Below are positions 12,701-30,185 of a stretch of 41,598 bases of DNA, piece after piece; the stretch's first letter is position 1, and each line of letters starts with the position of its first letter. Location: positions 1 to 41,598 of the forward strand of contig JAKIWD010000003.1 in assembly GCA_022750205.1 (NCBI GenBank). Reading direction: 5' to 3'. A program made the position numbers and the translations under genes. Below the pieces are notes generated by a model that worked only from the letters and a program-made list of their open reading frames with translations, was not told the DNA's origin and did no database searches. Origin of the DNA: Thermoplasmata archaeon. GTDB taxonomy: Archaea; Thermoplasmatota; Thermoplasmata; Lutacidiplasmatales; UBA184.

Positions 12701-14263
12701 GTGGAGCGTGTAGTTGAGGAAGTGGACCACGCCCGAGCCCGCTCCCGCCCACTGGAGTGTGAGGGAGCCCCCACCCGAGGTGGGGACGCTGAAGTTCTGG
12801 ACCGCGTAGAACGGGAGCCCGGCGGAATCGAACGCATACGACGTCAGATACTGGTTGTACTGCCCAAAGTCCCGGGTAACGCCCTGGAAGTCCGTGGCTC
12901 CGAATTCGTAGGCGTTCTGGTTGGCCGCGAAACTGTACCAGGGGTAGCTGCAGAAGTCGCTCCCGTCCCGGCCGAGGCAGGCGCCGCCGCTCAGGGAGTC
13001 GATCCACGAGATCCCGCCGAAGTCCTGGATGAAGCCGACCTGGCTCGCGGTCTGCCGGGATTTGGCGTTGAAGAAGACCGTCGGGTAGATGTGCCACGGG
13101 ACGAGCGTGTTGTTGATCCACCGCGACGGGATGTACGAGCCGCACGGGGCGGCGGGATTGTACTGGGTTGGAGGTGGAGCGCCGGCGTTGCAGCCCCCGA
13201 AGGAGTCGTTGCCCGGGTCGACCGTCGTATGTCCGGCTTCGAACGAGAACGATACCGGTAGGTCGCCGCCGGGGCTCCAGGGGAGCGCGTCGTCCACGTT
13301 GTTGGCGAGGTAGGCCGGGTTCAGGGGGTAGCGGCCCGAGTTGTTGTAGAGCGTGAGGTCCGAGGTGATCCCCGTCGACTGGTCGGCGACGACGATCGCC
13401 TCACCGGTCCGAGACCCTTCCCAGCCGGTCATGGTGATGAGGACACGATCGCCCTGGTTCATCTGGAACGGCGCGTTCGTGCCCGTGTCATTGAGGGCCG
13501 ACTGGTAGCACGGGTCTTCCTGCCCGTCCGACAGTTCGATCTGCCACGCTACCGCGTAGGCGCCCCACACGCCGGGCTGGGAGAATCCGGCCCCGTTCGT
13601 GTCCGGGTAGAATTGGAGTTCGAGGAAGCACTGGCCCATGTAGCCGAACGGGTCGTACAGGTTCATGCCGAACCAGACCGCGATGTACAGCGCCGATTGA
13701 TTCTGCGCCGCGCTCGTCTCGATCGGGAGCGAGACGTTCCACGTGACGTTCCCACCGCTCCCCGGAAGGTTGGAGAACGGCTCGAGTCCCGGCTCGTCGT
13801 GCCCGTAGCAGTTGTCCGCGTACGCCCACTGCCCGGCGTCGGGCCAGCGCCCGAAACACTCGTTGGTGAGCGACGGGAACGTCGGCGTCAACCCGGTGGG
13901 GGCCCTCGACGGGGACGCCGTGACCGGCGCTCCGGGCGGGACGGCGTCCGGGCCCCAGGCGCCGGGGTGGTAGCCGGGGTTGATGCTGTGGAATGCGAGA
14001 CCGGGCGCTCGCGCCGACGGCACGTGTCCGACAGCGGGCGTCGGAATGGAGGTCGAGCTAATGGCCCGGGGAGGGCTGGCGGTGGAGGGGGCGACCCCGA
14101 TCCCAACGTGCGGGACGTTTGCGGGGGCCGCGGCGGACGCCGGGGACGGCATCGAGCCGAGGATCGCGACGAGGGTGATCAGGACCATGAGCGATCCCGT
14201 GCGTAGTCGTCGACCCCGAGTCCCGATTTGCCTCACGTTCCGTTTCCTCCGCGCGAGGGCCAC
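9782..14263 (-). CDS. Large (1493 aa) membrane-anchored surface protein: signal peptide, Cys-rich N-terminal domain, beta-rich repeat stalk, poly-Gly/Pro-Thr linker, C-terminal TM helix
   Basis: Basic N-terminus plus hydrophobic LMVLITLVAILG...ASA. About five repeats of GxYSxxAxPxxGxxFxxWxxT (InlB B-repeat-like). A Gly27 run, then TPPPTPTPTTP, then TM helix LYAGVVAALIVVLALAALLVM followed by RRH and an acidic Pro-rich tail. Confidence 0.88.
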   Translation of the reverse strand: MALARRKRNVRQIGTRGRRLRTGSLMVLITLVAILGSMPSPASAAAPANVPHVGIGVAPSTASPPRAISSTSIPTPAVGHVPSARAPGLAFHSINPGYHPGAWGPDAVPPGAPVTASPSRAPTGLTPTFPSLTNECFGRWPDAGQWAYADNCYGHDEPGLEPFSNLPGSGGNVTWNVSLPIETSAAQNQSALYIAVWFGMNLYDPFGYMGQCFLELQFYPDTNGAGFSQPGVWGAYAVAWQIELSDGQEDPCYQSALNDTGTNAPFQMNQGDRVLITMTGWEGSRTGEAIVVADQSTGITSDLTLYNNSGRYPLNPAYLANNVDDALPWSPGGDLPVSFSFEAGHTTVDPGNDSFGGCNAGAPPPTQYNPAAPCGSYIPSRWINNTLVPWHIYPTVFFNAKSRQTASQVGFIQDFGGISWIDSLSGGACLGRDGSDFCSYPWYSFAANQNAYEFGATDFQGVTRDFGQYNQYLTSYAFDSAGLPFYAVQNFSVPTSGGGSLTLQWAGAGSGVVHFLNYTLHGTTTIQHLDPGSYSLNAIPATGSSFTSYSSTTGATLDSATTGWSSFTLTSSATITVTFAPGLAPVTHLLITEENHEGNLSLVPGFSWAPSPLPTGINPGIPFDGQLLTSAVTVVGNRSFSLTPGIYSVQALPQPGFKFNGWTSTGSVYVFTPIANYTWINFTGGTGTSLDAHYLPTTLNDTLVLEATPIDGGKIVVNGIAHNPGTVLVLVSGTYSISASPNASFTFAAWHATGEGTLSNYSRVTNLELQNGTSMLTAEFNASPTINLTIRGGVGGHIALDGAVVTGSITESQIARATHSIAAVPAPGDYFLGWSISPAVGAIIGNLTSSLTTLTLRSAIQLNASFHVAAGVSTVNFTASGGSIVFNEATSYSGTASNGSVAAGVYALAPEPAIGMMFTGWSTSGSVTVLTQYNQNAAGDWLASYALQVAGGGSVTASFGAQTYPVSFLVDPYAPVALDVQGTSGTWTVAAGASANLPAGAYNVSLVGAGYGSPTVVVTSNLTASASSATVTALTVGGSGSFYLLKGPGTFVVAASIAGLVQPTVPFPIALHAADPATPINWTLHADASSPTLSCPSSVLSGAVDASATCTVPSAGTYQLDFSASDGLINVANQTNLTFSVEANPTATITSPTPGEDLMGAPATTVAAAFTTTIAANASAYSETLSVVDPTTEAVLTDTPSATNLPGDARLWLPGTSSGSVGIVASDFVSGNDLAGGAYELEVTLFSTQFLGSGGFPIYTLNTTILPFSVVALAITGPAGGMTLPVGPITVTFSLSGPASINAAWLNFTTPAPATTSSNVLGDLQLGGGSLVVEAPTNGTYTLTLAVYDPAGGQWLGTSSTFVAHNSSTGGGGGGGGGGGGGGGGGGGGGGGGGGGKPPGNNSTTPPPTPTPTTPSSTAVPWELYAGVVAALIVVLALAALLVMRRHPPKDGGPGPLEPADTGPRELETPIETPSDGSFAVGPEPGEPPAPPA
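10076..10156 (-). repeat. Poly-glycine tract of 27 codons inside the large surface protein
   Basis: 81 nt of NCC triplets on the + strand, read as GGN x27 on the minus strand. All four Gly codons are used. Confidence 0.95.
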
Positions 14264-14466: not shown

Positions 14467-16866
14467 ATGACGTATAACTCGAGGGAATCCGCCGCCCGAA
14501 TATGGGCGGCGACCGGGGTGGCACTCCTCCTAGCGATGTGCCTCCCGCTGAACTCGGAGAATCAATCGGCGGGCCAGCTCCGAATCGCGGTGTCGTCGGA
14601 CAGCGCGGCCCGTCCCGCGGGGTCGTCGCTCCTCTCCCAGCCCGCGCCGGACCCGCCGGGGAGCAGCCTGCGAGAGGAGGGAGGGAATCCGCGTCCGGCG
14701 GCCACGGGGGTCGACCCCTACCTGACGTTCACCCAGCAACCGGCGCCGGTGGGAGAGGCGGATTTTGGCCTCGGCCCGGGGGGTGCACCTCTCGGCTATG
14801 CCACCTCGATCTTCCTCGGTCAGATCGACCTGACGAACCTCTCGGTGCTGAACTCGAGCTTGCCGAGCCCCGGCGCGCTGACCTTTCAGCTGAACGTCAA
14901 CCTCGAGTTCTCCGAGGGCCCGAAAACGTACGTCTACTGGGCCCAGGACCTGTTCCAGTTCAATACCCAGGGTGGGGAGGCCCAGTTCGCCGACGCTGTC
15001 TGGAACGCTTCGGGCGTCGGCGACCAGCTGACCCCCTCCTCGCTCGTCGGGAACGGCAATCTGACCTCGTCTCCGGCCGGGAAGTTCTATTCCTACGCCG
15101 CCGGCCCGAACGCGACGGGAAATGGGATATTCTTCCCGCTGCCCGCCGAGGTTCAACTGCAGGTCACCTCCCTCGACGTCCAGGGCGTCCCCGGTCTCGA
15201 TTTCCAATTTGAGGACGGCTTCGGCTGGAACACCTACGACGTGGTACGATTCCCGTTTGCAGCAGGGGCCTTGGTCTCGGGTTTTGTCGTGAACGGGTCG
15301 GCCTATCGCCCGGACGGAAAGTACCTCGACGCCGAGCTAGTGTTGGGGGGCCCCAGCCCCGGCGCCAGCACCGTTGCGCGGACACTCGGCGCCCGCCTCG
15401 CCCTCCTCTACTGGAACGGGCACAACCTCCAGTCGATCCTCGACTCCTACAACTTCGGGGGAGACTCGACGGCCTCGATCGGCCATGTCGAGAGTTCCCC
15501 GGCCTTCGACCCCACCGACGGATCGGTGACCGCGGGCTTGAACGCAAGCGCCTCCGGCCCCCTCGGCCCGCTGTTCAATCGCTCGGACCTGGGTGTCGTC
15601 AACATCTCGACCTCCGTCGCCGCTGGCTCCGTCGCCATCAACGCTGCCGTCAACGAGACCTTTCAGGGCGGCGGCGCGAACTTCACCGTTCCGCCCGGCA
15701 ACTACACCTTCGCGATCTACGCCGACGGTCTGCGTCAGGGAGCGGCCCGAGCTGCCGTCAACGCGGGGTCGTACCTCGGGCTCGCCATCGCGTGGCACGT
15801 TGTCTACTCCCTCACGTTCCTCAGCGCTGGCCTCCCCACCGGTGTCACCTGGTCTGTCACCGTGAACGGTTCGACGGAGTCGTCGGACACCAGCACGATC
15901 TCCTTCGTGGCGTCGACCGGGAACTATTCGTTCCAGGTAGGACCGCAATCCGGCTTCGTGGCTTCTCCCGCTTCGGGATCGATCCCCGTCACGACGGAAG
16001 CCGTGATCGAGGACCTCGATTGGACGCTGCAGCTCGTGGCGCTGTCGTTTGTCGAGGTAGGGCTCCCGATTGCGACGCCCTGGTCCGTGACGGTCCAAGG
16101 CGTGGTGTACTCGGGAACGAGTTCGGCCATTTCCGTCACCGTACCTCCCGGAACGGTCGCCTACTCGGTAGGGGACGTCCCGGGGTACCGCTCCACCCCA
16201 CGCGTTGGGCTGCTTCAGGTGAATGCGGACAACCTCACGGTGAACTTGACATGGGTGCCGTTCACGTATCTGGTGAACTTCGTCGCCAACGGGCTCCCCG
16301 CGTCCGCGATCTGGTCGGTTAACCTGAGCACGGGCGGGGACGGGACGACGCTGACCGGCGACACGCCGGTCCAGTCGACGGAACTCCCGAATGGGAGCTT
16401 CGCGTTCCGCGTCGTCGGTCCGGCGGGATATACCCCGACCCTCCCGGGTTCTTCACTCGTCGTCGCCGGGCGCGACATCGAGGTCGCGATCCCGTTCGAG
16501 TTGGTCGTCGGGTTCATCCTGGGAAATCTCCTCCCCACGGATGTTTCCGTTTGGGTCGACAACCTGAGCCTCAACGTTTCCAATGGCAGTTTCAATTTCT
16601 CGGTCGTCCCGGGGATCCACGACGTCCGAGCGTCGGCGCCCGGGTACGCCTCGATCGAGCGCCTGGTCATCGTGGAGGCCAACCGCACCACGATCGTCGA
16701 CTGGCAGCTCTCGAGCGACGAGGCCGGCTCGACGTTCCTCTCCCCGACCGTCGGGGCGATCCTTGGGCTCGTTGGGGCGGCCGCGATGGTGGGATGGTTT
16801 GCGTTCCGTCGACGGAGATCGAAACGATCGCATGCACGAATTCGAGGCACAAATGACGACGTTTAG
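14467..16866 (+). CDS. Thermopsin-family (peptidase A5) membrane-anchored protein, paralog 1, with divergent motifs
   Basis: Signal peptide, then PAPVGEADFG, FQLNVNL, YVYWAQD, DAELVLGGP and LLYWNGHN. Three F-x3-GLP-x4-WSV stalk repeats, a PEGA-like domain, and a TM helix followed by RRRR. Start placed at ATG 14467; the ORF track uses 14380. Confidence 0.88.
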   Translation: MTYNSRESAARIWAATGVALLLAMCLPLNSENQSAGQLRIAVSSDSAARPAGSSLLSQPAPDPPGSSLREEGGNPRPAATGVDPYLTFTQQPAPVGEADFGLGPGGAPLGYATSIFLGQIDLTNLSVLNSSLPSPGALTFQLNVNLEFSEGPKTYVYWAQDLFQFNTQGGEAQFADAVWNASGVGDQLTPSSLVGNGNLTSSPAGKFYSYAAGPNATGNGIFFPLPAEVQLQVTSLDVQGVPGLDFQFEDGFGWNTYDVVRFPFAAGALVSGFVVNGSAYRPDGKYLDAELVLGGPSPGASTVARTLGARLALLYWNGHNLQSILDSYNFGGDSTASIGHVESSPAFDPTDGSVTAGLNASASGPLGPLFNRSDLGVVNISTSVAAGSVAINAAVNETFQGGGANFTVPPGNYTFAIYADGLRQGAARAAVNAGSYLGLAIAWHVVYSLTFLSAGLPTGVTWSVTVNGSTESSDTSTISFVASTGNYSFQVGPQSGFVASPASGSIPVTTEAVIEDLDWTLQLVALSFVEVGLPIATPWSVTVQGVVYSGTSSAISVTVPPGTVAYSVGDVPGYRSTPRVGLLQVNADNLTVNLTWVPFTYLVNFVANGLPASAIWSVNLSTGGDGTTLTGDTPVQSTELPNGSFAFRVVGPAGYTPTLPGSSLVVAGRDIEVAIPFELVVGFILGNLLPTDVSVWVDNLSLNVSNGSFNFSVVPGIHDVRASAPGYASIERLVIVEANRTTIVDWQLSSDEAGSTFLSPTVGAILGLVGAAAMVGWFAFRRRRSKRSHARIRGTNDDV

Positions 16867-19288
16867 GGAGCCCGATCGAGCCGTCTCGGCGAGCGAAGGT
16901 TCGAAGGCCTGCCAGTCCCGCTCGGCCGTCGCGAGCGCGCTCGCAATCCTGTTGATCGTCGGGATCCCCTCGGGCTTCGGCCCCACCTTCTTCCCGCATG
17001 GGCCCACGGTCGTCCCCTCGACTCCTCCAATGGTCCCCATTGCGACCCCCGCACATCGAGCCGAGGGCACCCCCGAACTGGATCGAGTCGCCTCGGCACA
17101 CGCTCCCCCGACCCCCACCGTGGGCGGGGGCGTCAACCCGTACCGCTTCTACAACCGGGAACCGGCTCCCGTCGGGGAAGCCGACTACGGGATCGACGCC
17201 GCCGACACACCCTCCAGCTACTCGACTCCGATCTTCTATGCCCGGTTGTTCCTCGACAACATCGCCACGCAGAACGCGAGCCTATCGGAGCCTCGGATCG
17301 CAACGTTCCAGCTGAACGTGAATCTGTACTTCACCCAGAACTCGACGGTCTACGTCTATTGGATCCAGGACGTCCTCGAGTACAACACCTCGAGCGGGAT
17401 CACTCACTTCTTGGACAACGTCTGGAACGCGTCCGGGCTCGGTACCCAGATGCTGAACTCCTCGATCACCGGCCTCGGCACCGTGACCGGATCGCCGGCG
17501 GGTGCCTACTACTTCGCCAACGCCGGTGCGCAGGCCGGCAATGTCGTGACCTTACAACTCCCGACCGAGGTCGATCTCCAGGTGGTCTCGGAGACCGTCG
17601 GGGGGGCCCCCGGCATTGCGTTCGAATTCCAGGACGGGTTCGGTTGGCAAGGGTTCGACACGGTCTCCTTCCCCTTCGCCGTCGGCGCGGTCGACTCCGG
17701 ATTCGTCGTCGATGGATTCCAATACCGGCCGGACGGCGCCTATCTCGATGCCGAGGTGACGATCGGAGGCCCGGGAGGGGGAAGCCAGACCAAGGTCGAT
17801 GCGTCGAGCGTGAACGTCGAGCTTCTTTACTGGAACGGCCACAACCTGCAGGCGATCGTCAACGCCTACAATTTCGGGAGCGATACGGCGGAGGGGGTCA
17901 CGAACCTTGCCTCGACCGTGCAGTACTCCGGTGAGAACGGCACGCCCGCGGCGGCGCTTCGCATCAACGCGTCGGCCAAGCTGGGGCCGCTCTTCGACCG
18001 CGCCGACGTCGGAATCGTGAACATCAGTACGTCGGTGCCGGCCGGCGCCCTCTTCGTCAACGGCACGTTCTATGGAGCGTACCAGGGCGGGCAAGCGAAC
18101 CTAACGGTCGGCCCGGGGAACTACACGTTCTCGATCTACGACGCCGGGTTCCTCGAGGGGTCGGTGGCCGCTCGGGTGACCGCAGGGGCCTACGTGCCGT
18201 TGCAGGTCGCATGGCACGACGTCTACTTCGCGAGCTTCATCACCGCGGGTCTTCCCTCGGGGATCATCTGGTCCGTCACGCTCAATGGTACGCCCCAGGA
18301 GTCCGATGTCGGGGTCATCTCCTACCTGGTCCCGCCCGGCAGTTATGGGTACATCATCAACCCGCTCTCCGGATTTGTACCTTCCCCGGCGTCGGGTACC
18401 GTAAACATCACGAACGCGGGTCGGAACGTCACCATTAGCTGGTCGGTGCGGGAGTTCCAGGTGTCGTTCATCGCGCTCGGACTCCCGAGCGCTCTTGAGT
18501 GGTCCGTCGTGGTCGCCGGGACGCTGTACGCGAGCCCCACCGCCGTGATCGTGGTCGCCGAGGCGCCTGGAACCTACGCGTACTCGTTCGGCGAGGTGGC
18601 CGGATTCCACACCAACCCGACCGAGGGTTCCGTGGACGTGATCGCCACGAACTTGACCCTCAATGTAACCTGGACCCGATTCACCTATGTGGTCGACTTC
18701 GTGGCGCAAGGGTTGTCGAGCGGGCTCGCGTGGGGCCTGGCCGTCGAGTCCAACGGGGTCTGGGTCAACAGCTCGGGGGTCGCCGCGATCGTCGGGGTGC
18801 CGCTCCCGAACGGCAGCTTCGAGTACGCCGTCACCGCGCCGGCTGCCGCGGTCGTGTACCCTCCGCAAGGCGCAGGGACGGTCGTCGGGAAGGCGCTGGA
18901 CGTGGTACTCGTCTTCTCGGCGGCGAACGGGTACCTCGCCGGGACGATCACGCCGGTGACGGCATCCCTTTGGGTCGACAACGTCAGCGTCCCCCTGGTG
19001 AACGGCTCGTTCAACACCTCGGTCTCCCCCGGTGAACACGAGGTACGGGCCTCCGCCGCGGGCTACGAGTCCGCGGATCAGCTTCTCCTGGTGGCGGCGG
19101 GTACGGTGACCCCCGTGCATTGGGACCTTGCCAGCCAAGTCGCGGCCCCCACCTCGCTCTTCAGCAACCCGGCCGTGCTCGGGGCGGTCGTCGGGCTCGG
19201 GGCTATCGCGGTCGCAGGGCTCTGGTTCTGGAGACGACGGCGGACCCGGGTCGCTTCGGAACGACCGGTCGTTCTCGACGAGCCGTGA
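16853..19288 (+). CDS. Thermopsin-family membrane-anchored protease, paralog 2
   Basis: PAPVGEADYG, FQLNVNL, YVYWIQDV, FLDNVWNAS, DAEVTIGGPGGGS and AYNFGSDTAEG. Three stalk repeats, a PEGA-like domain, and a TM helix followed by RRRR. The ATG at 16853 overlaps the paralog 1 end by 14 nt and precedes a signal-like hydrophobic stretch. Confidence 0.9.
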   Translation: MTTFREPDRAVSASEGSKACQSRSAVASALAILLIVGIPSGFGPTFFPHGPTVVPSTPPMVPIATPAHRAEGTPELDRVASAHAPPTPTVGGGVNPYRFYNREPAPVGEADYGIDAADTPSSYSTPIFYARLFLDNIATQNASLSEPRIATFQLNVNLYFTQNSTVYVYWIQDVLEYNTSSGITHFLDNVWNASGLGTQMLNSSITGLGTVTGSPAGAYYFANAGAQAGNVVTLQLPTEVDLQVVSETVGGAPGIAFEFQDGFGWQGFDTVSFPFAVGAVDSGFVVDGFQYRPDGAYLDAEVTIGGPGGGSQTKVDASSVNVELLYWNGHNLQAIVNAYNFGSDTAEGVTNLASTVQYSGENGTPAAALRINASAKLGPLFDRADVGIVNISTSVPAGALFVNGTFYGAYQGGQANLTVGPGNYTFSIYDAGFLEGSVAARVTAGAYVPLQVAWHDVYFASFITAGLPSGIIWSVTLNGTPQESDVGVISYLVPPGSYGYIINPLSGFVPSPASGTVNITNAGRNVTISWSVREFQVSFIALGLPSALEWSVVVAGTLYASPTAVIVVAEAPGTYAYSFGEVAGFHTNPTEGSVDVIATNLTLNVTWTRFTYVVDFVAQGLSSGLAWGLAVESNGVWVNSSGVAAIVGVPLPNGSFEYAVTAPAAAVVYPPQGAGTVVGKALDVVLVFSAANGYLAGTITPVTASLWVDNVSVPLVNGSFNTSVSPGEHEVRASAAGYESADQLLLVAAGTVTPVHWDLASQVAAPTSLFSNPAVLGAVVGLGAIAVAGLWFWRRRRTRVASERPVVLDEP

Positions 19289-21280: not shown

Positions 21281-21435
21281 CGTACCTCCGACCTCGCTCG
21301 GGGTTAAGATGCTCGCGGCGGACGGGTGCGCCGCGAGCCCGCTCCCGCGCGAGGTCGAACGGATCCCGTGCCCAAGGGTGGAGAATATAGGCCCCACCGG
21401 TGTGGGCGCGCGAGACACAATCCGCGGACAGTTCC

Positions 21436-22869
21436 ATGTGCGCATTTCGATACGAGCGACGTCCGATCCCCGAGGAGAACCGGGAGGAGCGCGTCGAGGG
21501 GTTCGGCGAGATCCTCCACAGCTACACGCCCGAGGAAGCGGTGCTCGAGGCCCAGCGGTGCCTGCAATGCGCCATGCCATTCTGCGTGCAAGCCTGTCCG
21601 ATCACGCAGGATTGTCGGGGGTACCTCTTGGCGGTCGCCCAAGGGGATTTTGACGGGGCCGCCCGGATCACGTTGATGGACAACCCGCTCGCGACGGTCC
21701 TGTGCAAGACCTGCTATCACTACTGCGAGGAGGACTGCGTGATGGGCGGGAAGGGAGTGCCCATCGCAATCCGACATATCAAGCGGGCCGCGCTCGAGTT
21801 CGGGAAATCGGATACGCTCTACGTTCCAAGCACGCCCCGCCACGAACGGATCGCCATCATCGGCGGCGGTCCCACCGGCATCCAGGCGATGTGGGAACTG
21901 TGCCTCCGGGGGTACGCCGTCACCCTGTTCGAGGCCGAACCCTTCCTGGGGGGGCAGGTCGAGACGATCCCCAAGTACCACCTCGCCGGCAACGAGCTCG
22001 ACCTTGACCTCGCCCGGTTCAAGGACCTGGACTGCACCGTCGTGACGGGAAAGAAGGCGGGCGTCGACTTCACCCCCGAGACACTGATCGCCGAGGGGTA
22101 CCTGGCGGTCCTCGTCGCCATCGGCGCCTCGGACCCGCGCGCTCTCGGCATTCCCGGAGAGCACTTGCCCGGCGTCTTCACCGCCCTTCAATTCCTCCTG
22201 GCGATGAACAAGGGCCCCGACGTGCTCCTCGGACGCCAGGGGCGGCGCGTGGTGGTCGTGGGGGGTGGGGATGTCGCGCTCGACGCGGCCCGCTCCTGCG
22301 TACGCTTGCCGGAGGTGGCCGGGGTGACCGTCGTGTACCGCAGGGGCCGCACCGACATGCCGGCCGGGGACGAGGAGGTCGAAGGGGGCGAGATCGAGGG
22401 GGCGACGTTCCTCTTCCAACGAAACCCCGTCCGGATCCTCGGGACCGCTCGGGTCGAGGGGATGGTCGTCCAGACGATGCAACCCGGTCCTCCGGACGCG
22501 ACCGGGCGACCGACGCAGGTCCCCGTGCCGGGATCGGAGACCACGCTCGACTGCGACACGATCGTGATCGCCGCCGGGGAGACCGCGGAGATCGCCGCGC
22601 TCCCCAAGGAACTCGACTTCAACCTCTCCTCCCACCCGTGGCCTCAGGGGAAGAAGGAGGATTGGATGACCGACGTCGAAGGGGTGTTCGCCGGCGGCGG
22701 AAAGTCCGTGGTCTACGCCATGGGCGCCGGAACGCGGGTAGCGATCGCCATCGATGCGTTCATCGCCCGAAAGAAGGGACGTAGCCCCACCCCGCGACCG
22801 AATCCGCTCGGGGGGCCGGACGCGCCGAAGCTCCCCGCCGGGTACGGCGGACCGACCTGGCACCTCTGA
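21436..22869 (+). CDS. GltD/SudA/NfnB-like Fe-S flavoprotein (NAD(P)H-dependent oxidoreductase)
   Basis: EAQRCLQCAMPFCVQACP and CKTCYHYCEEDC (Fe-S), IAIIGGGPTG (FAD), VVVVGGGDVALD and VYRR (NADPH), TDVEGVFAGG. Start placed at ATG 21436. Confidence 0.9.
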   Translation: MCAFRYERRPIPEENREERVEGFGEILHSYTPEEAVLEAQRCLQCAMPFCVQACPITQDCRGYLLAVAQGDFDGAARITLMDNPLATVLCKTCYHYCEEDCVMGGKGVPIAIRHIKRAALEFGKSDTLYVPSTPRHERIAIIGGGPTGIQAMWELCLRGYAVTLFEAEPFLGGQVETIPKYHLAGNELDLDLARFKDLDCTVVTGKKAGVDFTPETLIAEGYLAVLVAIGASDPRALGIPGEHLPGVFTALQFLLAMNKGPDVLLGRQGRRVVVVGGGDVALDAARSCVRLPEVAGVTVVYRRGRTDMPAGDEEVEGGEIEGATFLFQRNPVRILGTARVEGMVVQTMQPGPPDATGRPTQVPVPGSETTLDCDTIVIAAGETAEIAALPKELDFNLSSHPWPQGKKEDWMTDVEGVFAGGGKSVVYAMGAGTRVAIAIDAFIARKKGRSPTPRPNPLGGPDAPKLPAGYGGPTWHL

Positions 22870-22918: not shown

Positions 22919-23311
22919 TCACTTCGAGAAGTGGCGAACGAGGGCCTTCCAGTAGTACTCCTTCCAACCCTCGCTGATGCTCGCGAACGACGAGGCCGGA
23001 ATTCCGTACTGGGCGAATTCGATCCGCGTCCCCTTCCCGGCCTTGGTCAACTTGAAACGCGCGATCGAGTAGTGCCGCTCGGGCCAGGAATCCGCCCGCC
23101 ACGCCCAGACGATCTCCTTGGGCTTGTGATGCGCGAGGATGAACCCCTCCAGACTCCCGTCGTACATCGAGAAGGGCGCCCCTGGTTTCTTGCCGATCTT
23201 CGCCGAGCCGCCGCTGAACGCCGCGTGCTCGCCGGCGTTGACGAGCGCGTGGTAGACCGCGCTGGGGGCCGCCGGGATCGTTGCGTGCTGGCTGAGGTTC
23301 TTGACCTTCAT
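22919..23311 (-). CDS. SRPBCC domain protein (Aha1/AHSA1-like)
   Basis: IPAAPSAVYHAL, GAPFSMYDG, IVWAWRADSWP, GTRIEFAQYGIP and EGWKEYYW. ATG at 23311. Confidence 0.88.
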   Translation of the reverse strand: MKVKNLSQHATIPAAPSAVYHALVNAGEHAAFSGGSAKIGKKPGAPFSMYDGSLEGFILAHHKPKEIVWAWRADSWPERHYSIARFKLTKAGKGTRIEFAQYGIPASSFASISEGWKEYYWKALVRHFSK

Positions 23312-23610
23312 CGTCAGGATGGCTCCTCGCCCGAGGGGAGGCCGCAACGCTACATAGGGGGTTCTGACGCGGCTCGGAGCGGGGGACGCCCGCGGACAGG
23401 GCGGCATTCGGATGGCGCAGTGTGGTTCTCCGGTCGGTGGCGGGCCACGCGCTTCGAAGAAATAGGTCGTAGACCTCGTGGCTCGGTCGACGGAACTCGG
23501 TCTGGGCTGAACTCGGAACGACGGGCCAAGTGACGTGGTGGGGGTCCGCCCACCCTCGCTATGGCGACGGAGTTCGATACGGGGAGTGCTGGCGCTGGCC
23601 GCCGAAACAC

Positions 23611-25101
23611 CTAGCGTGCGAAGAGGGAGCGGAACCAGCTCCCGATCTCATCGAGCGCTTCCCAGCCCTCGTCGACGAGGCCCCGATAATCGATGAAGCC
23701 ATGCGGCATGCCCGGGTATCGGGTGGCGCGGACCGGAACCAAGGCATCGTGCAGCCGTCGCGCGTACGCCTCCCCCTCGTCGCGCAATAGGTCGTACTGG
23801 GCGGTGATGACCAGCGCCGGGGGAAGTCCGGAGAGTTCCGTGGCGTTGAGCGGGGCGACACGGGGGTCCTTCCCCTCCTCGGCGTTCGTGAGGTATTGCT
23901 CCCACATCCACGGCATGAACGCCGTCTCGAAGCCGTACCCTTTCGCATTCTCGGTGTACGATTCCGTGAGGGGCATGTAAGCCGTGATCGGGCAGATCAA
24001 TACCTGGCCGGCGATCTTCGGTCCGTTGCGTTCGCGGGCCAGCAGGCAGACCACCGCGGCCATGTTCCCCCCGGCGCTATCTCCGGCGACCGCGACCCGG
24101 GCCGGATCGGTCCCGAGGCGAGCGGACACCGCCTCCTCAGAGAGCCAACGGACGGCCGCGAAACAGTCCTCGACCGCCGTCGGGAACTTGTGCTCGGGCG
24201 CCCGGCGGTATCCGACGGATGCGACCACGCATTGGGAGCGGTTGGCGATCTCCCGGCAGACGGTATCGTGCGTGTCGAGGTCGCCGAACACCCACCCGCC
24301 CCCGTGGAAGTAGGCGATGACCGGGAACGGCGACTCCCCGTCCTTGGGGGTGTAGACGCGGACCGGGACTCGGTGGCCCGACGGCCCGAAGCTCGTGGTC
24401 TTGAGCTGAGAGACCGCGGGGGCCGTACCAATGTACCCATCGGTTTCCCGCGACATCTGGCGCGCGATCTTTCGACCCTCTTCCGGTGACAGCGAAGTGA
24501 GGTCGGGGTAGGTCCCGGCCTCGTGCTCGAGCTGGGCCCGGATCTCGGGGTGGAACTCGGCCGATCGCGGCGGGGTCGGCGGCAACGGAGCGGCCTCCGG
24601 AGGCGGCAACTCCGCGGGCGGCTGGGCGCTCTCGTCCGTGGGAATGAGGTCGGCGAACGCGGGAGCCGGTGGGTCTTCGTGATCGGCGGCGGTCTCGATC
24701 GCCTCCGAGGGCGCTACTGCCTCGATCGGTTCGGGTGGGGGGGTGGAGAGGACCTCGACCGGCGGTTCAGGGGTCGCGAGGGCGGGCATGTCCGGCGGCG
24801 GGGCAACGGAGACCGGAAGCGCCTCGAAACGGCGTAGACGACCTTCGGGGGTGAAGGCGACCGCGAAACGGAACGATGCCCCCGCGTGCTGCGCCTCTCC
24901 GGTGCGGCCCCACCGATTGCCGTCGACACGTACCGCGTCGAGGTTCGGCCACGCGGTCCGTCGGCCGATCTCCTCGAGGAGCAGGACCCACTCCTGGGCG
25001 CAGAGCTTGCAGCAGAAGTAGGTCGACCGGCCCTGGACCTCCTGCCACCAGTCACCCCAGGTCGACCCGCAGAGCGGGCAGCCCTCAGGCGGGGGGTCCA
25101 T
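23611..25101 (-). CDS. Fusion protein: TA0938-like Cys4 zinc-binding domain, Pro/Glu-rich linker, HSL-family (family IV) alpha/beta-hydrolase
   Basis: The N-terminus GCPLCGSTWGDWWQEVQGRSTYFCCKLCA...RRTAWPNLD...GNRWGR resembles Thermoplasma TA0938 (recalled from memory). The C-terminus has HGGGW, GDSAGG, YDLLRDEG and MPHGF, giving an oxyanion motif and an intact Ser-Asp-His triad. One uninterrupted ORF. Confidence 0.88.
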   Translation of the reverse strand: MDPPPEGCPLCGSTWGDWWQEVQGRSTYFCCKLCAQEWVLLLEEIGRRTAWPNLDAVRVDGNRWGRTGEAQHAGASFRFAVAFTPEGRLRRFEALPVSVAPPPDMPALATPEPPVEVLSTPPPEPIEAVAPSEAIETAADHEDPPAPAFADLIPTDESAQPPAELPPPEAAPLPPTPPRSAEFHPEIRAQLEHEAGTYPDLTSLSPEEGRKIARQMSRETDGYIGTAPAVSQLKTTSFGPSGHRVPVRVYTPKDGESPFPVIAYFHGGGWVFGDLDTHDTVCREIANRSQCVVASVGYRRAPEHKFPTAVEDCFAAVRWLSEEAVSARLGTDPARVAVAGDSAGGNMAAVVCLLARERNGPKIAGQVLICPITAYMPLTESYTENAKGYGFETAFMPWMWEQYLTNAEEGKDPRVAPLNATELSGLPPALVITAQYDLLRDEGEAYARRLHDALVPVRATRYPGMPHGFIDYRGLVDEGWEALDEIGSWFRSLFAR

Positions 25102-25987
25102 ACATCTCCGCACGCTCCAGGCGTGCCCCGAGGTAATCGTCGAACAGGTCGATCGATCGGAGGAACACGCTCTGGACGTCCTCTACGAGGTTGAGCGCCT
25201 GCGCGTGGCGCTCGACAAGGGCCAATGCAGCGTCGGCATGACCCAGGTCGACCTCGTAGCCTTCCCGCAGGAACGCCTTGGTTTCGGGCGAGATCGCCAT
25301 CCCATCGAGGATGGCCGGATCAAAGTAGTGCACCGTCGCTCCGGCCGGAAGGAGGTTGCGGTGGGCGATCAGCTCCAGCGAGTGCATCGCGGCCATCGCC
25401 GAGACCCAGTGCTCCTGCTCGCAGATCCGGTGCCACTCCTTGAGCACGCGCTCGGTGGTCGGCAGGCCCGGAGTCGCCAGGATGATCGCGCGGGAAAGTC
25501 CGACGCTCTCCCCCATCCGCAGCAGGAGCTCGTAGTGCGACGGCAGTCCGGGTCCCCTTCCGCCGAACTCGGTGTCGATGTTGTCGATCTCGTAGAGCAC
25601 GACGTCGGGCTGGCCCGACCGCGCGAGAATGAAGGCGCAGCAACGGACCCACTGGCGCAGAAAGTGCTGGTGCTCGACCGCGTACCCCAACAACACAGAC
25701 CGCTCGGGATGTTGTAACGCGACCACGAACGGGTGGGGTCGCTCGCCGAAAAAACGCCGAATGAACCTCCGCTTGATCCAGTGGGCGAGCCCCTCCGGTG
25801 GGAGCAGAAAGATATCGCGCAGCTGCTCCGTCAGCGTATCACGCTCGACACGTCGAAGGGAAATCGATTGGTTCAGCCAGCGGACGTGGCTCGGTTCGCT
25901 CTGCGATGCCTGGTCGAGCAGATGCGTCGCGAGCGCGGGGAAGTCTCCGACGGGGAACCCCTGGAGACACACCGGGCACTTCGTCAC
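25085..25987 (-). CDS. N-terminal C2H2-like zinc finger plus heme-oxygenase-like domain (CADD/PqqC/TenA superfamily); putative iron redox enzyme
   Basis: CPVC-x14-H-x11-H, then HPFV, NIDTEFGG...SHYELLLRMGESVGL, AAMHSLE and EGYEVDLGH. The helix and ligand order matches HO-like diiron proteins. Confidence 0.78.
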   Translation of the reverse strand: MTKCPVCLQGFPVGDFPALATHLLDQASQSEPSHVRWLNQSISLRRVERDTLTEQLRDIFLLPPEGLAHWIKRRFIRRFFGERPHPFVVALQHPERSVLLGYAVEHQHFLRQWVRCCAFILARSGQPDVVLYEIDNIDTEFGGRGPGLPSHYELLLRMGESVGLSRAIILATPGLPTTERVLKEWHRICEQEHWVSAMAAMHSLELIAHRNLLPAGATVHYFDPAILDGMAISPETKAFLREGYEVDLGHADAALALVERHAQALNLVEDVQSVFLRSIDLFDDYLGARLERAEMYGPPA

Positions 25988-25999
25988 TCGACCCTCATC

Positions 26000-26215
26000 C
26001 TAGAACGGAAACTCCGCCGGGAGCCGCTCTCGAAGTTGTCGGTACTCCGGATCGTCGCCGTGCCGGGTCCTCAGGTCGAGTAGGAACTCGCGGACCTGGG
26101 CCGCAGTCAGCTTCCGGTAGCCTCCGACCATCTCGATCGTGCCCTCGAAGTCCGAGTGGCATGCCTCGAAGCAATTGCCCATTCCGGTCAGCAGCTCGCG
26201 CTCTCGGGGGGTCAC
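26000..26215 (-). CDS. Small (71 aa) hypothetical protein, first gene of the three-gene operon
   Basis: The GTG at 26215 gives MTPRERELLTGMGNCFEACHSDFEGTIEMVGGYRKLTAAQVREFLLDLRTRHGDDPEYRQLRERLPAEFPF, which has a helical, protein-like composition. A TATA-like GATATAG lies 23-29 nt upstream. The stop is 12 nt before the next start. Confidence 0.75.
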   Translation of the reverse strand: MTPRERELLTGMGNCFEACHSDFEGTIEMVGGYRKLTAAQVREFLLDLRTRHGDDPEYRQLRERLPAEFPF

Positions 26216-26301
26216 GTCTGGACTTAGGCGGGTGGGCCTATATCGGCGTATTCCCGATGCGGGGGCGGTCGCCCGCCCCGGCCGAACCGGGGACCAGGCC
26301 C

Positions 26302-27563: not shown

Positions 27564-30185
27564 GTGCGGCCTTCGTCACTGCTTCTCCGGGTGGGTATCC
27601 CCGTACTGATCTGGGGACTCCTGGTGATCCCCGGCCTACCCGGCCTCCCCGTCTCGCCGTCTGCGGGGGTCCCCAGCGGGGGGGCCCCGTACGAGGAGAC
27701 CGCCCCCGCGCTGGCCGGGCCCCACGGCCACCCCGTCCCCACCGAGTTCCCCCCGACGCGGAGCCTCGGGGTACCCTCCACCAGATTCGCCGTCGACCCG
27801 ACCGCGTACTACACCTCCGAACCGGCACCGATGGGCATCGCCGATTTCGGCGTCAACCCCGCGAGCGGCGCCGGGTACCGCTACGCGACGACCGAGTTCT
27901 GGGGGGTGACGGATATCTCGTCCCTCTCGACGAAGAACAGCTCGTTGTCAGACTCCCACGACCTGTCCATCCAGCTCAACATCAACTTTCAGGTCACGAG
28001 CGGCTCGAACTCGTACACGTACTGGGTACAGGACGTGGCGTTCCTGAACTCTTCCGACCGGCTCATCGAGTTCATCGACAACGTCTGGAACATGTCGAGC
28101 TCCGGCGCCAGCATGTACAATTCCACCATCGTCGGGAACGGGTCGATCGGTCTGGCCGGGTCGCTGTACTATTACTACGCCATCGCGAACGGAGCGCTCG
28201 CCGGAAACGATGTCTTCCTGACCTATCCAAGCCAGATCGAGCTCGCGATGGTCTCAACCCCGCACGGCGGACGGCCCGGCGTGGCGTTCGAGTACAACGA
28301 CGGGAGCGGGTGGGTCACCTACGACAACATCGGCTTGCGGTTCGCGAGCGGCTACACGGTCACGGGATTCGTCGTCGACGGGACGAGCTACAACTCGGCG
28401 GGCCTGTTCGACGACGCCGAGATGACCCTTGGAGGGCCCGGCGGGGGCACGTCGATCAAGGACGTCCAGTCGAACCTGACGATGACCCTCTCCTACTGGA
28501 ACGGCCACAACTTCCAGCAGGTGACCAATGCCTACGGCTTCGGGAGCGATACGGCGGAGTCGATCAGCAACGTCGTCGCGACGGGGGAGTACTGGCGGTC
28601 GAACGGCACGCTGTTCGCCTCCGAGGCCAACGGCTCAGGGTCGCTCGGCGAGCTGTACGATCGTTCGTTCGTCGGCATCCTGAACGTCACGTCGCTGCTC
28701 CCGGCGGGCTCCCTCTCCCTCAACGGAACCTCCTACGGAACGTTTGCGGGACGTGACATGAACATCACCGTCGCCCCCGGCACGTACGCCCTGCAACTAT
28801 TCGCCGCGAACGGATCTCTCGACGCCTCCCAGATGGTCACGATCGCCGATGGCGCGTATGTCGCGCTGCGGTTCGGCGCGGCGCCCTCGTACCGCGTCAA
28901 CTTCCTGGAGTCCGGACTTCCACCCCTCGCGAGCTGGTCCGTCACGTTCAACGGGCAGACGCTCTCCACCACAAACAGCTCTCTCTCCTTCCTGGCGACC
29001 AACGGTACCTATGGGTTCCGCACGGGCCTCGTGCCCGGCTTCGCGTCAACGCCGACGACGGGAGTGCTCACCGTCAACGGAACCGCGTTCAGCCAGCCGC
29101 TGGTGTGGGCGCCGGTCACCTACGCGCTGACGTTCACGGAAACCGGGCTGCCGGCGGGCGCCGTCTGGGGCGTCCAGCTCAACGCCGTTGCCCATTTCAC
29201 GTCCAACGCTTCGCTCTTCCTTCGAGAGGTCAACGGCTCGTACTCGTACTCCTACCTGGTCGTGCCCGGCTACCTCCCGACCCCCGCTGTGGGCCAGGTC
29301 AACCTCACGGGCGCCGGGGCCACGATCCCCGTCCAGTGGGGATTGGCGTCGTACGGGATCACCGTCCAAGAGTCGGGCCTCCCGCTCGGCACGATCTGGT
29401 CGGCGACGCTCGATGGGATCACGCATTCCTCGAGCGCCGCCGTATTGGCCTTCGGCCTGGCGAACGGCAGCTACGCCTACTCGATCACATCGATCGCCGG
29501 CTACTCGGTCCAACCCCGGGTCGGGACGCTCAACATCTCCGGCCAGCCGCAGGCCCTTTCGGTGACCTTCAGCCCGGTGGTGTACACGCTCACCTTCACC
29601 GAGAGCGGGTTGCCGGCGGGCGCGGAATGGTCCGTCACGATCGGGGCGCTCGCGGCGGTGTCCACGGGCACCATCATCTCATTCTCGCTACCCAACGGGA
29701 CCTACTCCTTCGAGATCGCCACCGGTGCCTCGGACGTCGCGTCGATCCCCGGTAGCACGATCACGATCGACGGGCAAGGGGGCGATCTAGCGGTCCCGTT
29801 CCTAGCGGTCAACGGATTCCTTCAGGGCACGATCCTCCCGGCGAACGCTTCGGTCTATCTCAACGGCAGCCTGGTTCGGTCCGCGGGAGGATGGGTCAAC
29901 CTCACCCTGCTCCCCGGGTCCTACGTCGTCACGGTTTCCTTGGCCGGATTCCAACAGTACACTACCACGCTCGAGGTGCGCGCCGGTACCGTGACGCCGC
30001 TCAATGTCACGCTCACCGCCATCCCCGCCACCCCGCCGCCCAGTCCACGGGGCGCCGTCGGTCCCGGGGGCCTGACGACCCTCGAGCTCGGGGGGCTCCT
30101 GGCCGCGATCGCCGTGGCACTCGCCCTCGTTGCGGGCGCGTGGTGGGTCGGGCGCCAACGGCGTCGCCCACGTCGGTGGCGGTAG
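27564..30185 (+). CDS. Thermopsin-family membrane-anchored protease, paralog 3 (canonical motifs)
   Basis: Signal peptide, then PAPMGIADFG, SIQLNIN, YWVQDV, FIDNVWNMS, DAEMTLGGPGGG and AYGFGSDTAESI. Four Y-x3-(F/V)-x-E(S/T)GLP-x4-W repeats, a PEGA-like domain, and a TM helix followed by RQRRRPRRWR. Confidence 0.92.
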   Translation: MRPSSLLLRVGIPVLIWGLLVIPGLPGLPVSPSAGVPSGGAPYEETAPALAGPHGHPVPTEFPPTRSLGVPSTRFAVDPTAYYTSEPAPMGIADFGVNPASGAGYRYATTEFWGVTDISSLSTKNSSLSDSHDLSIQLNINFQVTSGSNSYTYWVQDVAFLNSSDRLIEFIDNVWNMSSSGASMYNSTIVGNGSIGLAGSLYYYYAIANGALAGNDVFLTYPSQIELAMVSTPHGGRPGVAFEYNDGSGWVTYDNIGLRFASGYTVTGFVVDGTSYNSAGLFDDAEMTLGGPGGGTSIKDVQSNLTMTLSYWNGHNFQQVTNAYGFGSDTAESISNVVATGEYWRSNGTLFASEANGSGSLGELYDRSFVGILNVTSLLPAGSLSLNGTSYGTFAGRDMNITVAPGTYALQLFAANGSLDASQMVTIADGAYVALRFGAAPSYRVNFLESGLPPLASWSVTFNGQTLSTTNSSLSFLATNGTYGFRTGLVPGFASTPTTGVLTVNGTAFSQPLVWAPVTYALTFTETGLPAGAVWGVQLNAVAHFTSNASLFLREVNGSYSYSYLVVPGYLPTPAVGQVNLTGAGATIPVQWGLASYGITVQESGLPLGTIWSATLDGITHSSSAAVLAFGLANGSYAYSITSIAGYSVQPRVGTLNISGQPQALSVTFSPVVYTLTFTESGLPAGAEWSVTIGALAAVSTGTIISFSLPNGTYSFEIATGASDVASIPGSTITIDGQGGDLAVPFLAVNGFLQGTILPANASVYLNGSLVRSAGGWVNLTLLPGSYVVTVSLAGFQQYTTTLEVRAGTVTPLNVTLTAIPATPPPSPRGAVGPGGLTTLELGGLLAAIAVALALVAGAWWVGRQRRRPRRWR

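Follow-up and report, generated by a model that had tools for sequence, protein, structure and literature searches.

A compact three-gene module in a Thermoplasmata genome

We analysed a stretch of 41,598 nt (hereafter the window) from contig JAKIWD010000003.1 of a soil Thermoplasmata archaeon (assembly GCA_022750205.1; genome 88.6% complete), with a G+C content of 65-71% throughout. The subject of this work is a module of three co-oriented minus-strand open reading frames (ORFs) located within positions 23611-26215. They encode a small protein with a CxxxC motif (gene 1), a heme-oxygenase-like (HO-like) protein preceded by a zinc finger (gene 2) and a protein in which a domain of the Ta0938 family is fused to an esterase (gene 3; Table 1). 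A preliminary description of the locus, made from the sequence, had proposed three tightly packed genes behind one TATA-like element that together form an undescribed metalloenzyme system. The three ORFs were confirmed, as were the spacer carrying a Shine-Dalgarno (SD)-like GAGGGT between genes 1 and 2 and an overlap of 17 nt between genes 2 and 3 when the ATG start of gene 3 is used.

To place these signals in a wider context, we used a prokaryote-wide scan with one genome per species, which returned 194 relatives; counts of loci refer to the best 80 of these 194. The ATATA core of the TATA-like element occupies positions 26239-26243, which corresponds to -28 to -24 from the GTG of the small gene, and lies directly past the stop codon of an unrelated upstream gene of 177 aa. 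Across 73 related upstream regions, the A+T fraction reaches 0.84-0.89 at -27 to -25 against a background of about 0.33, with a purine-rich patch ahead of this peak. The conserved position of the A+T peak supports the TATA-like element, whose spacing to the GTG would imply a leaderless or near-leaderless mRNA. The small ORF measures 71 codons in 71 of 78 loci, and its aligned first codon is GTG in 50, TTG in 17 and ATG in 6 of them. In most loci, 5-28 nt separate it from the HO-like gene, the start of which is preceded by an SD-like word in 53/78 loci compared with 33% of random 20-nt windows from the same loci. The HO-like and Ta0938 ORFs overlap in 75/78 loci (by 4-17 nt in 74 and by 167 nt in one). 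The position of the TATA-like element, the 71-codon length, the SD-like word and the ORF overlap all exceed chance. A bacterial-type promoter and terminator scan is uninformative for an archaeon. Among sequencing data sets, four DNA metagenome runs from one study share at most 0.22 of the locus words and no RNA data set was found.

Table 1. Features of the module and their positions in the window
Feature	Position	Strand	Remarks
TATA-like element	26238..26244	minus	About 26 nt upstream of the small-gene GTG; conserved A+T peak in relatives
Gene 1, small CxxxC protein, 71 aa	26000..26215 (coding 26003-26215, stop 26000-26002)	minus	GTG start; alignments
Spacer of 12 nt with SD-like GAGGGT	25988..25999	minus	Ahead of the gene 2 GTG
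Gene 2, HO-like protein, 300 aa	25085..25987 (coding 25088-25987, stop 25085-25087)	minus	GTG start; PF16293 + PF03070/PF14518
Gene 3, ORF	23614-25101	minus	496 aa from ATG at 25101, or 500 aa from GTG at 25113
Gene 3, Ta0938 domain, CxxC...CCxxC	24802..25101	minus	PF11494; PDB 2fqh match
Gene 3, linker of about 86 residues, Pro/Glu/Ala-rich	24544..24801	minus	In-frame GC3; shared architecture
Gene 3, C-terminal family IV esterase domain	23611..24543	minus	PF07859; NF058653; HGGG + GDSAG

The HO-like and Ta0938 genes form a conserved pair

Within the genus and class, the HO-like protein was searched in 41 related genomes. Full-length orthologs with 46-63% identity are present in 10 genomes besides its own, and an eleventh is split over two contigs. 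Ten loci were fetched for comparison. The HO-like and Ta0938 genes adjoin in 10/10 of them and the small gene lies directly upstream in 9/10, the exception in the ORF listing being the only locus from another family. In the 80-locus survey, the Ta0938 gene directly follows the HO-like gene in 80/80 loci. The small gene is found upstream in 78/80, and in both exceptions the HO-like gene starts at most 20 nt from a contig end. Judged by record title, about 53 of the 80 loci belong to Thermoplasmata-type metagenome-assembled genomes, 10 to Bathyarchaeia and 6 to Nitrososphaerales/Thaumarchaeota. The remainder consists of single Heimdallarchaeota and Crenarchaeota, two Methanobacteriota, one bacterium and otherwise unspecified archaea.

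The class was then surveyed through a sample of 301 genomes; the counts include one genome flagged as unpublished (G128), and each count is one lower if this genome is left out. Ta0938 scores above its cut-off in 45/301 genomes, in a single copy each, while zf-C2H2_9, the zinc-finger family of the HO-like protein, is matched in 46 genomes (42 above cut-off). In 40 of the 45 Ta0938 genomes, the zinc-finger HO-like gene is located 883-922 nt upstream on the same contig and strand, a spacing at which the two genes abut. The other five genomes comprise two with the genes on different contigs and three with a zinc-finger-less HO-like gene directly upstream. Such zinc-finger-less genes, encoding 243-282 aa, were found in three loci from sister genera (L123 2138-3288; L124 2259-3300; L125 2965-4027), each directly followed by a Ta0938-like gene, showing that the pairing is independent of the zinc finger. 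Four class genomes have a zinc-finger match and no Ta0938 match. As a search control, Sulfolobus acidocaldarius carries both the zf-C2H2_9 and Ta0938 families. Taken over the genus, class and 80-locus surveys, the synteny check on the proposed system was passed strongly, and the three genes are a conserved co-oriented unit.

Analysis of the surroundings reveals no conserved flanking genes, the commonest flank cluster among 31 loci being a rhodanese in five. Since the flanks are not conserved, the module is self-contained and has moved between lineages, and the comparison of sequences presents the window locus as one copy of what appears to be a horizontally spread archaeal module. The rhodanese-domain genes are found within about 2.5 kb of the module in at least three genera (L024 3670-4281, L026 2591-2983, L034 3799-4338 and two more) and never in the same operon. 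They give a weak lead toward sulfur chemistry, the loci being interrelated. VOC/glyoxalase and DUF169 genes are near the module in three of the 31 loci each. Two irregular copies were also noted. In one genus relative, G120, which is among the four class genomes with a zinc-finger match alone, the small gene is accompanied by an HO-like ORF shortened to 250 aa (L041 5077-5829) and no Ta0938 was detected; this is possibly a decaying copy of the module. A database protein of 104 aa (P0163) combines an N-terminal half from the small protein with a C-terminal half from Ta0938 and looks like the result of a deletion of the HO-like gene or of a contig mis-assembly.

The HO-like protein probably carries a dimetal site

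Residues 1-60 of the gene 2 product match zf-C2H2_9 (PF16293; 49.6 bits, cut-off 29), and the protein further matches TENA/THI-4/PqqC (PF03070; 86.7 bits) and Haem_oxygenas_2 (PF14518; 45 bits, cut-off 28.9). Its profile match to PDB 4LQX, a structural-genomics entry for the 'TENA/THI-4 domain-containing protein' SSO2700, extends over the full length with 46% identity (E 2.7e-125), which identifies it as an ortholog of SSO2700. SSO2700, from Sulfolobus solfataricus, and Ta0939, from Thermoplasma acidophilum, have the same two-domain zf-C2H2_9 and HO-like architecture and share its invariant Cys2His2 and Glu/His/Asp positions; the match gives the family, not the chemistry. In contrast to these two proteins, the window copy has a small CxxxC protein encoded upstream. 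The AlphaFold2 (AF2) model has a predicted local distance difference test score (pLDDT) of 95.4, and Foldseek aligns it with 4LQX at a template modelling (TM) score of 0.92, followed by PqqC, CADD, TenA, HrmI and BesC (probability 1.00). Together with the PF14518 match, the model displays the all-helical heme-oxygenase-like fold expected of the superfamily of HO-like dimetal oxidases/oxygenases (HDOs). At E<=1e-5, 715 HO-like relatives were found. Longer fused forms of 526-2000 aa were absent at E<=1e-10, which is weak evidence.

In 24 aligned HO-like sequences, the zinc-finger residues C4, C7, H22 and H34 are invariant, as are E105, H106, E133, E140, H151, E153, H202, E205, E242, D247 and H250, in agreement with the ligands that the preliminary description had picked out in both domains. 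After 4LQX, the nearest solved sequence relatives are CADD and the 4-aminobenzoate synthases (E ~4e-6), followed by PqqC (2e-3). More specifically, CADD (CT610) and NePabS (PDB 1RCW, 8VA9, 9PJ4), self-sacrificial synthases of 4-aminobenzoate (pABA), share the HO-like fold and are the nearest functionally characterised sequence relatives; CADD is not known to have a zinc finger, a Ta0938 partner or a small protein. The HMMER alignment to CT610 pairs E140 with E81, H151 with H88, E205 with E142, D247 with D178 and H250 with H181 (CADD numbering), so that five of the six ligands are kept. These CADD positions are what we take to be its metal ligands: the residue letters at the counted alignment positions agree, and the numbers were not found in the two CADD papers searched. 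HDOs hold their metals with three His and three (or four) carboxylates on the core helices, the four-carboxylate set being a noted variant (according to a review, PMC13108848). By this pattern, E105, H106, E133, E153 and H202 could complete a 3His/4carboxylate-type site, and the HO-like domain probably carries a dimetal site similar to that of CADD.

The Ta0938 domain, a proposed five-cysteine partner

The N-terminal 100 residues of gene 3 match Ta0938 (PF11494) with 83.5 bits (cut-off 27) and PDB 2fqh with an E of 2.6e-29. They belong to the same family as Ta0938 of Thermoplasma acidophilum (PDB 2FQH) and keep all five of its Cys, whereas the window domain differs in being fused via a Pro-rich linker to the esterase. 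C8, C11, C30, C31 and C34 are invariant across 85 Ta0938 sequences, and the CxxC...CCxxC pattern noted earlier thus stands. Ta0938 and Ta0939 are listed side by side in a 2007 table of proteins shared by Thermoplasma and Sulfolobus (PMC1852104).

Sub-threshold matches connect the 85 family members to TRASH in 81 cases (TRASH_HVO_1752_C, best E 8.6e-6), to YHS in 34 and to Arc_trans_TRASH in 6; the window domain itself has a TRASH score of 10.9 bits against a cut-off of 27. TRASH and YHS modules bind metals and occur in archaeal copper chaperones and regulators as well as in some diiron phenol hydroxylases. The five Cys and this weak likeness would fit a metal-handling, an electron-transfer or a merely structural zinc role. 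In a three-chain complex prediction with the HO-like protein, the Ta0938 domain and, as partner, the small protein, the scores were 0.02 and 0.00 (mark 0.32) and count neither way on binding.

The small protein and the esterase are additions to the pair

No Pfam or NCBIfam family matches the small protein, its best PDB sequence match has an E of 0.43 and no usable ESM Atlas match was obtained. Among 1.84 billion representatives searched by profile, 66 relatives turned up, with no connection to a larger family. About 30 of these 66 are 43-aa proteins that start at the internal Met29, which we take to be mis-shortened calls of genes with a GTG or TTG start. If so, the Cys-bearing half of the protein would often be missing from public protein sets. 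The start is GTG or TTG in 67/78 loci. Across 73 sequences, C15 and C19 are the sole invariant Cys. The CxxxC motif of the earlier C-x3-CH reading is therefore sound but the His is not: it is Gly in 9/9 genus relatives and recurs only in scattered distant lineages. The AF2 model (pLDDT 96) consists of four helices, the first of which ends at the two Cys, followed by a conserved C-terminal RLPxxFP tail that is not helical. The protein is acidic, with 13 Asp/Glu against 10 Lys/Arg, and Y58 is nearly invariant.

Its distribution is narrower than that of the gene pair. The small-protein profile detects 16 class genomes at E<=2e-26, all in two families, and one marginal match. The small gene adjoins the zinc-finger match in 15 of the 16 strong cases, the sixteenth lying at a contig end. 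In two other class families that keep the HO-Ta0938 pair, it was found in 0/33 and 0/10 of the genomes searched. Accordingly, the small protein is no universal substrate or carrier, as the preliminary description had considered; we infer that it joined the system as an accessory subunit within a single large branch of the family, the branch that includes the window.

The C-terminal 310 residues of gene 3 match Abhydrolase_3 (PF07859) with 261.4 bits and the LipP1 model of NCBIfam (NF058653) with 358.8 bits against a cut-off of 350. Pfam and NCBIfam thus confirm the proposed fusion and the domain assignments of both large proteins (PF16293 with PF03070/PF14518 and PF11494 with PF07859). The translation contains FHGGGW and AGDSAGG, of which we take HGGG to be the oxyanion hole and GDSAG the nucleophile elbow. 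The domain resembles the family IV, or hormone-sensitive-lipase, esterases in passing LipP1 and carrying both motifs. Those enzymes are standalone as a rule, whereas the window esterase takes the place of the free C-terminus of the module's Ta0938. The linker has an in-frame G+C fraction at third codon positions (GC3) of 0.7-0.9, with stops in both other frames, and the combination of Ta0938 and Abhydrolase_3 recurs in 16 further database proteins of several origins, whose Ta0938 parts show 57-68% identity. Several of these lie on contigs equal in length to those that encode the HO-like proteins most similar to that of the window. The coding-type GC3 of the linker and these 16 fused proteins show that the fusion is real. 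The fused gene is the sole Ta0938 copy in the window genome.

The esterase could not be retained as a part of the conserved system. It is fused to Ta0938 in 3/80 loci and in 0/10 of the fetched genus and class loci, where Ta0938 stands alone at about 100 aa. No homolog of the window esterase was found at E<=1e-20 in four related module-bearing genomes. The esterase fusion is confined to a subclade, and for this subclade only it suggests an ester or acyl substrate or product.

Interpretation of the module and its alternatives

On balance, we lean towards the reading in which the core of the module is an HDO, the ortholog of SSO2700 and Ta0939, translationally coupled to a five-Cys Ta0938 partner of about 100 aa, and hold it to be somewhat more probable than its negation. 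In such a system, the HO-like subunit would bind two metal ions (Fe/Fe or Fe/Mn) through the Glu, His and Asp residues of its core helices, activate O2 and oxidise a substrate. Ta0938 would form a 1:1 complex with the HO-like subunit. Its TRASH-like Cys site would either deliver or hold metal for a labile cofactor or pass electrons to re-reduce that cofactor, a role proposed by analogy to the rubredoxin-type partners of other diiron enzymes. The 71-aa CxxxC protein would be an accessory subunit of one branch, with the esterase fused to Ta0938 in the window subclade.

Several points weigh against this reading. Metal content, O2 use, complex formation and every role are inferred from the observed gene order, coupling, conservation, fold and ligand conservation, and so are the mutual links of the module proteins. 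The sixth CADD ligand, H174, faces the invariant G243, flanked by the invariant E242; E242 and H202, nearby in sequence, might replace it, and the site may be non-canonical or even mononuclear. The clustering of the ligands in space is a prediction from the alignment. Ta0938 was presumably solved as a zinc protein, and its role might then be structural throughout. The small protein was not found in any of the 43 genomes searched in the two pair-keeping families, and the esterase is missing from most loci; these absences imply that neither is essential to the core chemistry. Finally, the module is patchily distributed, with 9/28 genomes of the genus carrying it, and this argues for an accessory rather than a core function.

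A more elaborate version of the reading is possible but doubtful. In this version, Ta0938 would be an obligate metal-loading or electron-gating effector, the 71-aa protein of the window branch would be a dedicated substrate or carrier, and the fused esterase would release the product. The module would then be a new multi-protein type of HDO spread by gene transfer among acid-soil and thermoacidophilic archaea. According to a 2026 review (PMC13108848), HDO cofactors are labile, only about a dozen HDOs have been characterised and those studied need no protein effector. An obligate small five-Cys partner would therefore be a new arrangement. The pair MboA-MboB of the mangotoxin pathway, an HDO acetylenase and its reductase, is likewise an HDO with a dedicated co-encoded protein partner, and is described as perhaps the first case of a redox partner dedicated to an HDO (PMC13185094). 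MboB is a reductase with NAD(P)H, flavin and Fe2S2, whereas Ta0938 is a five-Cys TRASH-like domain of about 100 aa without a nucleotide-binding domain, and the two have no sequence relation.

In a literature search that left out most subscription journals, we found no description of the operon-level system, no paper on 4LQX or SSO2700 and none on Sulfolobus heme-oxygenase-like diiron proteins; Ta0938 and Ta0939 appeared only as entries of the 2007 table. The label 'undescribed' given to the system thus holds for the operon, but not for its parts, as the families are in Pfam and the structures 4LQX and 2FQH are solved. At the genomic level, this family breaks from the effector-free pattern: in the 80 loci, drawn from several archaeal phyla, a small five-Cys protein always accompanies it. 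The module has two orphan crystal/NMR structures (4LQX and 2FQH) and a genetically tractable carrier in Sulfolobus acidocaldarius. It could bring to light a new mode of HDO cofactor assembly or gating, its substrate, once worked out, would give a function to hundreds of archaeal genes, and the esterase fusion offers a natural Rosetta-stone clue to the chemistry in the window subclade.

Other explanations were weighed against the same data. The kinship with CADD raises the question of a self-sacrificial pABA synthase, in which the HO-like or the small protein donates a Tyr ring for an enzyme similar to dihydropteroate synthase (DHPS). CADD turns over only once and cleaves its own Tyr27 (PMC9522330), a precedent to which the nearly invariant Y58 of the small protein can be added, along with the position of CADD and its relatives as the best solved matches after 4LQX and the five kept ligands. 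The window genome has a DHPS-like Pterin_bind gene (252 bits) and no match to the chorismate-binding (PabB/TrpE) family, and canonical PabB is above cut-off in only 7/301 class genomes. We nevertheless consider this explanation improbable. The window protein has a Gly at the H174 equivalent and scores 15.7 bits against a cut-off of 200 with the CADD family model TIGR04305, the CADD N-terminal region with Tyr27 falls outside the alignment, and no Lys is invariant in the region aligned to CADD K152. The DHPS-like gene is present in 293/301 class genomes and the module in 45/301, so the module is not a general pABA source. The distributions are not complementary either, as a chorismate-binding-family match occurs in 33/45 module genomes and in 115/256 others, and no folate genes flank the module. 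Membership in the CADD family was rejected on the TIGR04305 score, the lack of phyletic complementarity and the lack of folate flanks. The PF03070 match and the automatic JGI name of the relatives, "pyrroloquinoline-quinone synthase", point instead to an ordinary PqqC or a TenA thiaminase II with its pathway encoded elsewhere in the genome, which is very improbable. What the window protein has in common with PqqC and TenA is the broad PF03070 match and the HO-like fold, and the structural matches are distant, with query TM scores (TMq) of 0.50-0.61 (0.50-0.57 for TenA). No NCBIfam PqqC or TenA model matches at E<=0.01, and in the genome, the completeness of which is given above, PqqE reaches at best 61.9 bits against a cut-off of 381 and PqqB has no match. 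No pqq or thiamine families were found among the 33 window ORFs scanned, which agrees with the earlier statement that the window lacks such genes. In addition, the conserved Glu/His/Asp set of the window protein matches the CADD metal site; to our knowledge, the cofactor-less PqqC and the hydrolytic TenA have no such metal site. The refutation named beforehand, an ordinary PqqC or TenA, was thus run and the HO-like protein proved to be neither.

The two remaining explanations concern the partners of the enzyme. Ta0938, the small protein or both could be the substrates, with the HO-like enzyme oxidising Cys, for example the vicinal CC. Both proteins have invariant Cys, including that pair, their co-encoding is obligate, and analogies can be drawn to CADD, as an HDO with a protein-derived substrate, and to diiron enzymes that modify Cys-containing peptides. 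The case would be one of analogy; moreover, the CxxC...CxxxC spacing fits a TRASH-type metal site and Ta0938 is a folded domain with a solved structure, unlike typical peptide substrates. We regard this explanation, too, as improbable. The 71-aa protein might, on the other hand, be a small operon regulator of the helix-turn-helix (HTH) type, perhaps sensing thiols or metals through its CxxxC, an unlikely reading that draws on its structural model. The model matches almost only DNA-binding HTH domains (the N-domains of MntR, DtxR and IdeR, sigma region 4, LuxR/GerE, LysR and MarR), with VIA Z scores of 4.5-6.4 and a similar Foldseek list. All these matches are weak, however, with Z below 8 (maximum 6.4) and Foldseek E of at least 1, values that are common for helical proteins. 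The window protein is also acidic, and conservation is concentrated in helix 1 and the C-terminal tail, while the would-be recognition helix is the least conserved. The gene's fixed location, immediately ahead of that for the enzyme and within one transcription unit, would suit a subunit just as well.

Other genes in the window

A GltD-like Fe-S flavoprotein (Fer4_20 and Pyr_redox_2) is encoded on the plus strand at 21400-22869, about 740 nt past the module, and in one genus relative a gene 57% identical to it is found close to the module (L015 8303-9466). This flavoprotein could be a redox supplier or leftover synteny. On the minus strand, 203 nt downstream of gene 3, a gene of the AHSA1/SRPBCC family (162 aa, 22919-23407) was identified; apart from one weak match in L015, it is not conserved beside the module elsewhere. 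A protein of 1493 aa on the minus strand (9782-14263), with a divergent InlB B-repeat as its sole Pfam match and relatives near the module in two loci (L021 and L036), is probably a surface protein. Two large proteases of the thermopsin family, one with a PEGA domain, are encoded on the plus strand at 16583-19288 and 27564-30185. Thermopsins are acid proteases, and the pair fits an acid-adapted archaeon.

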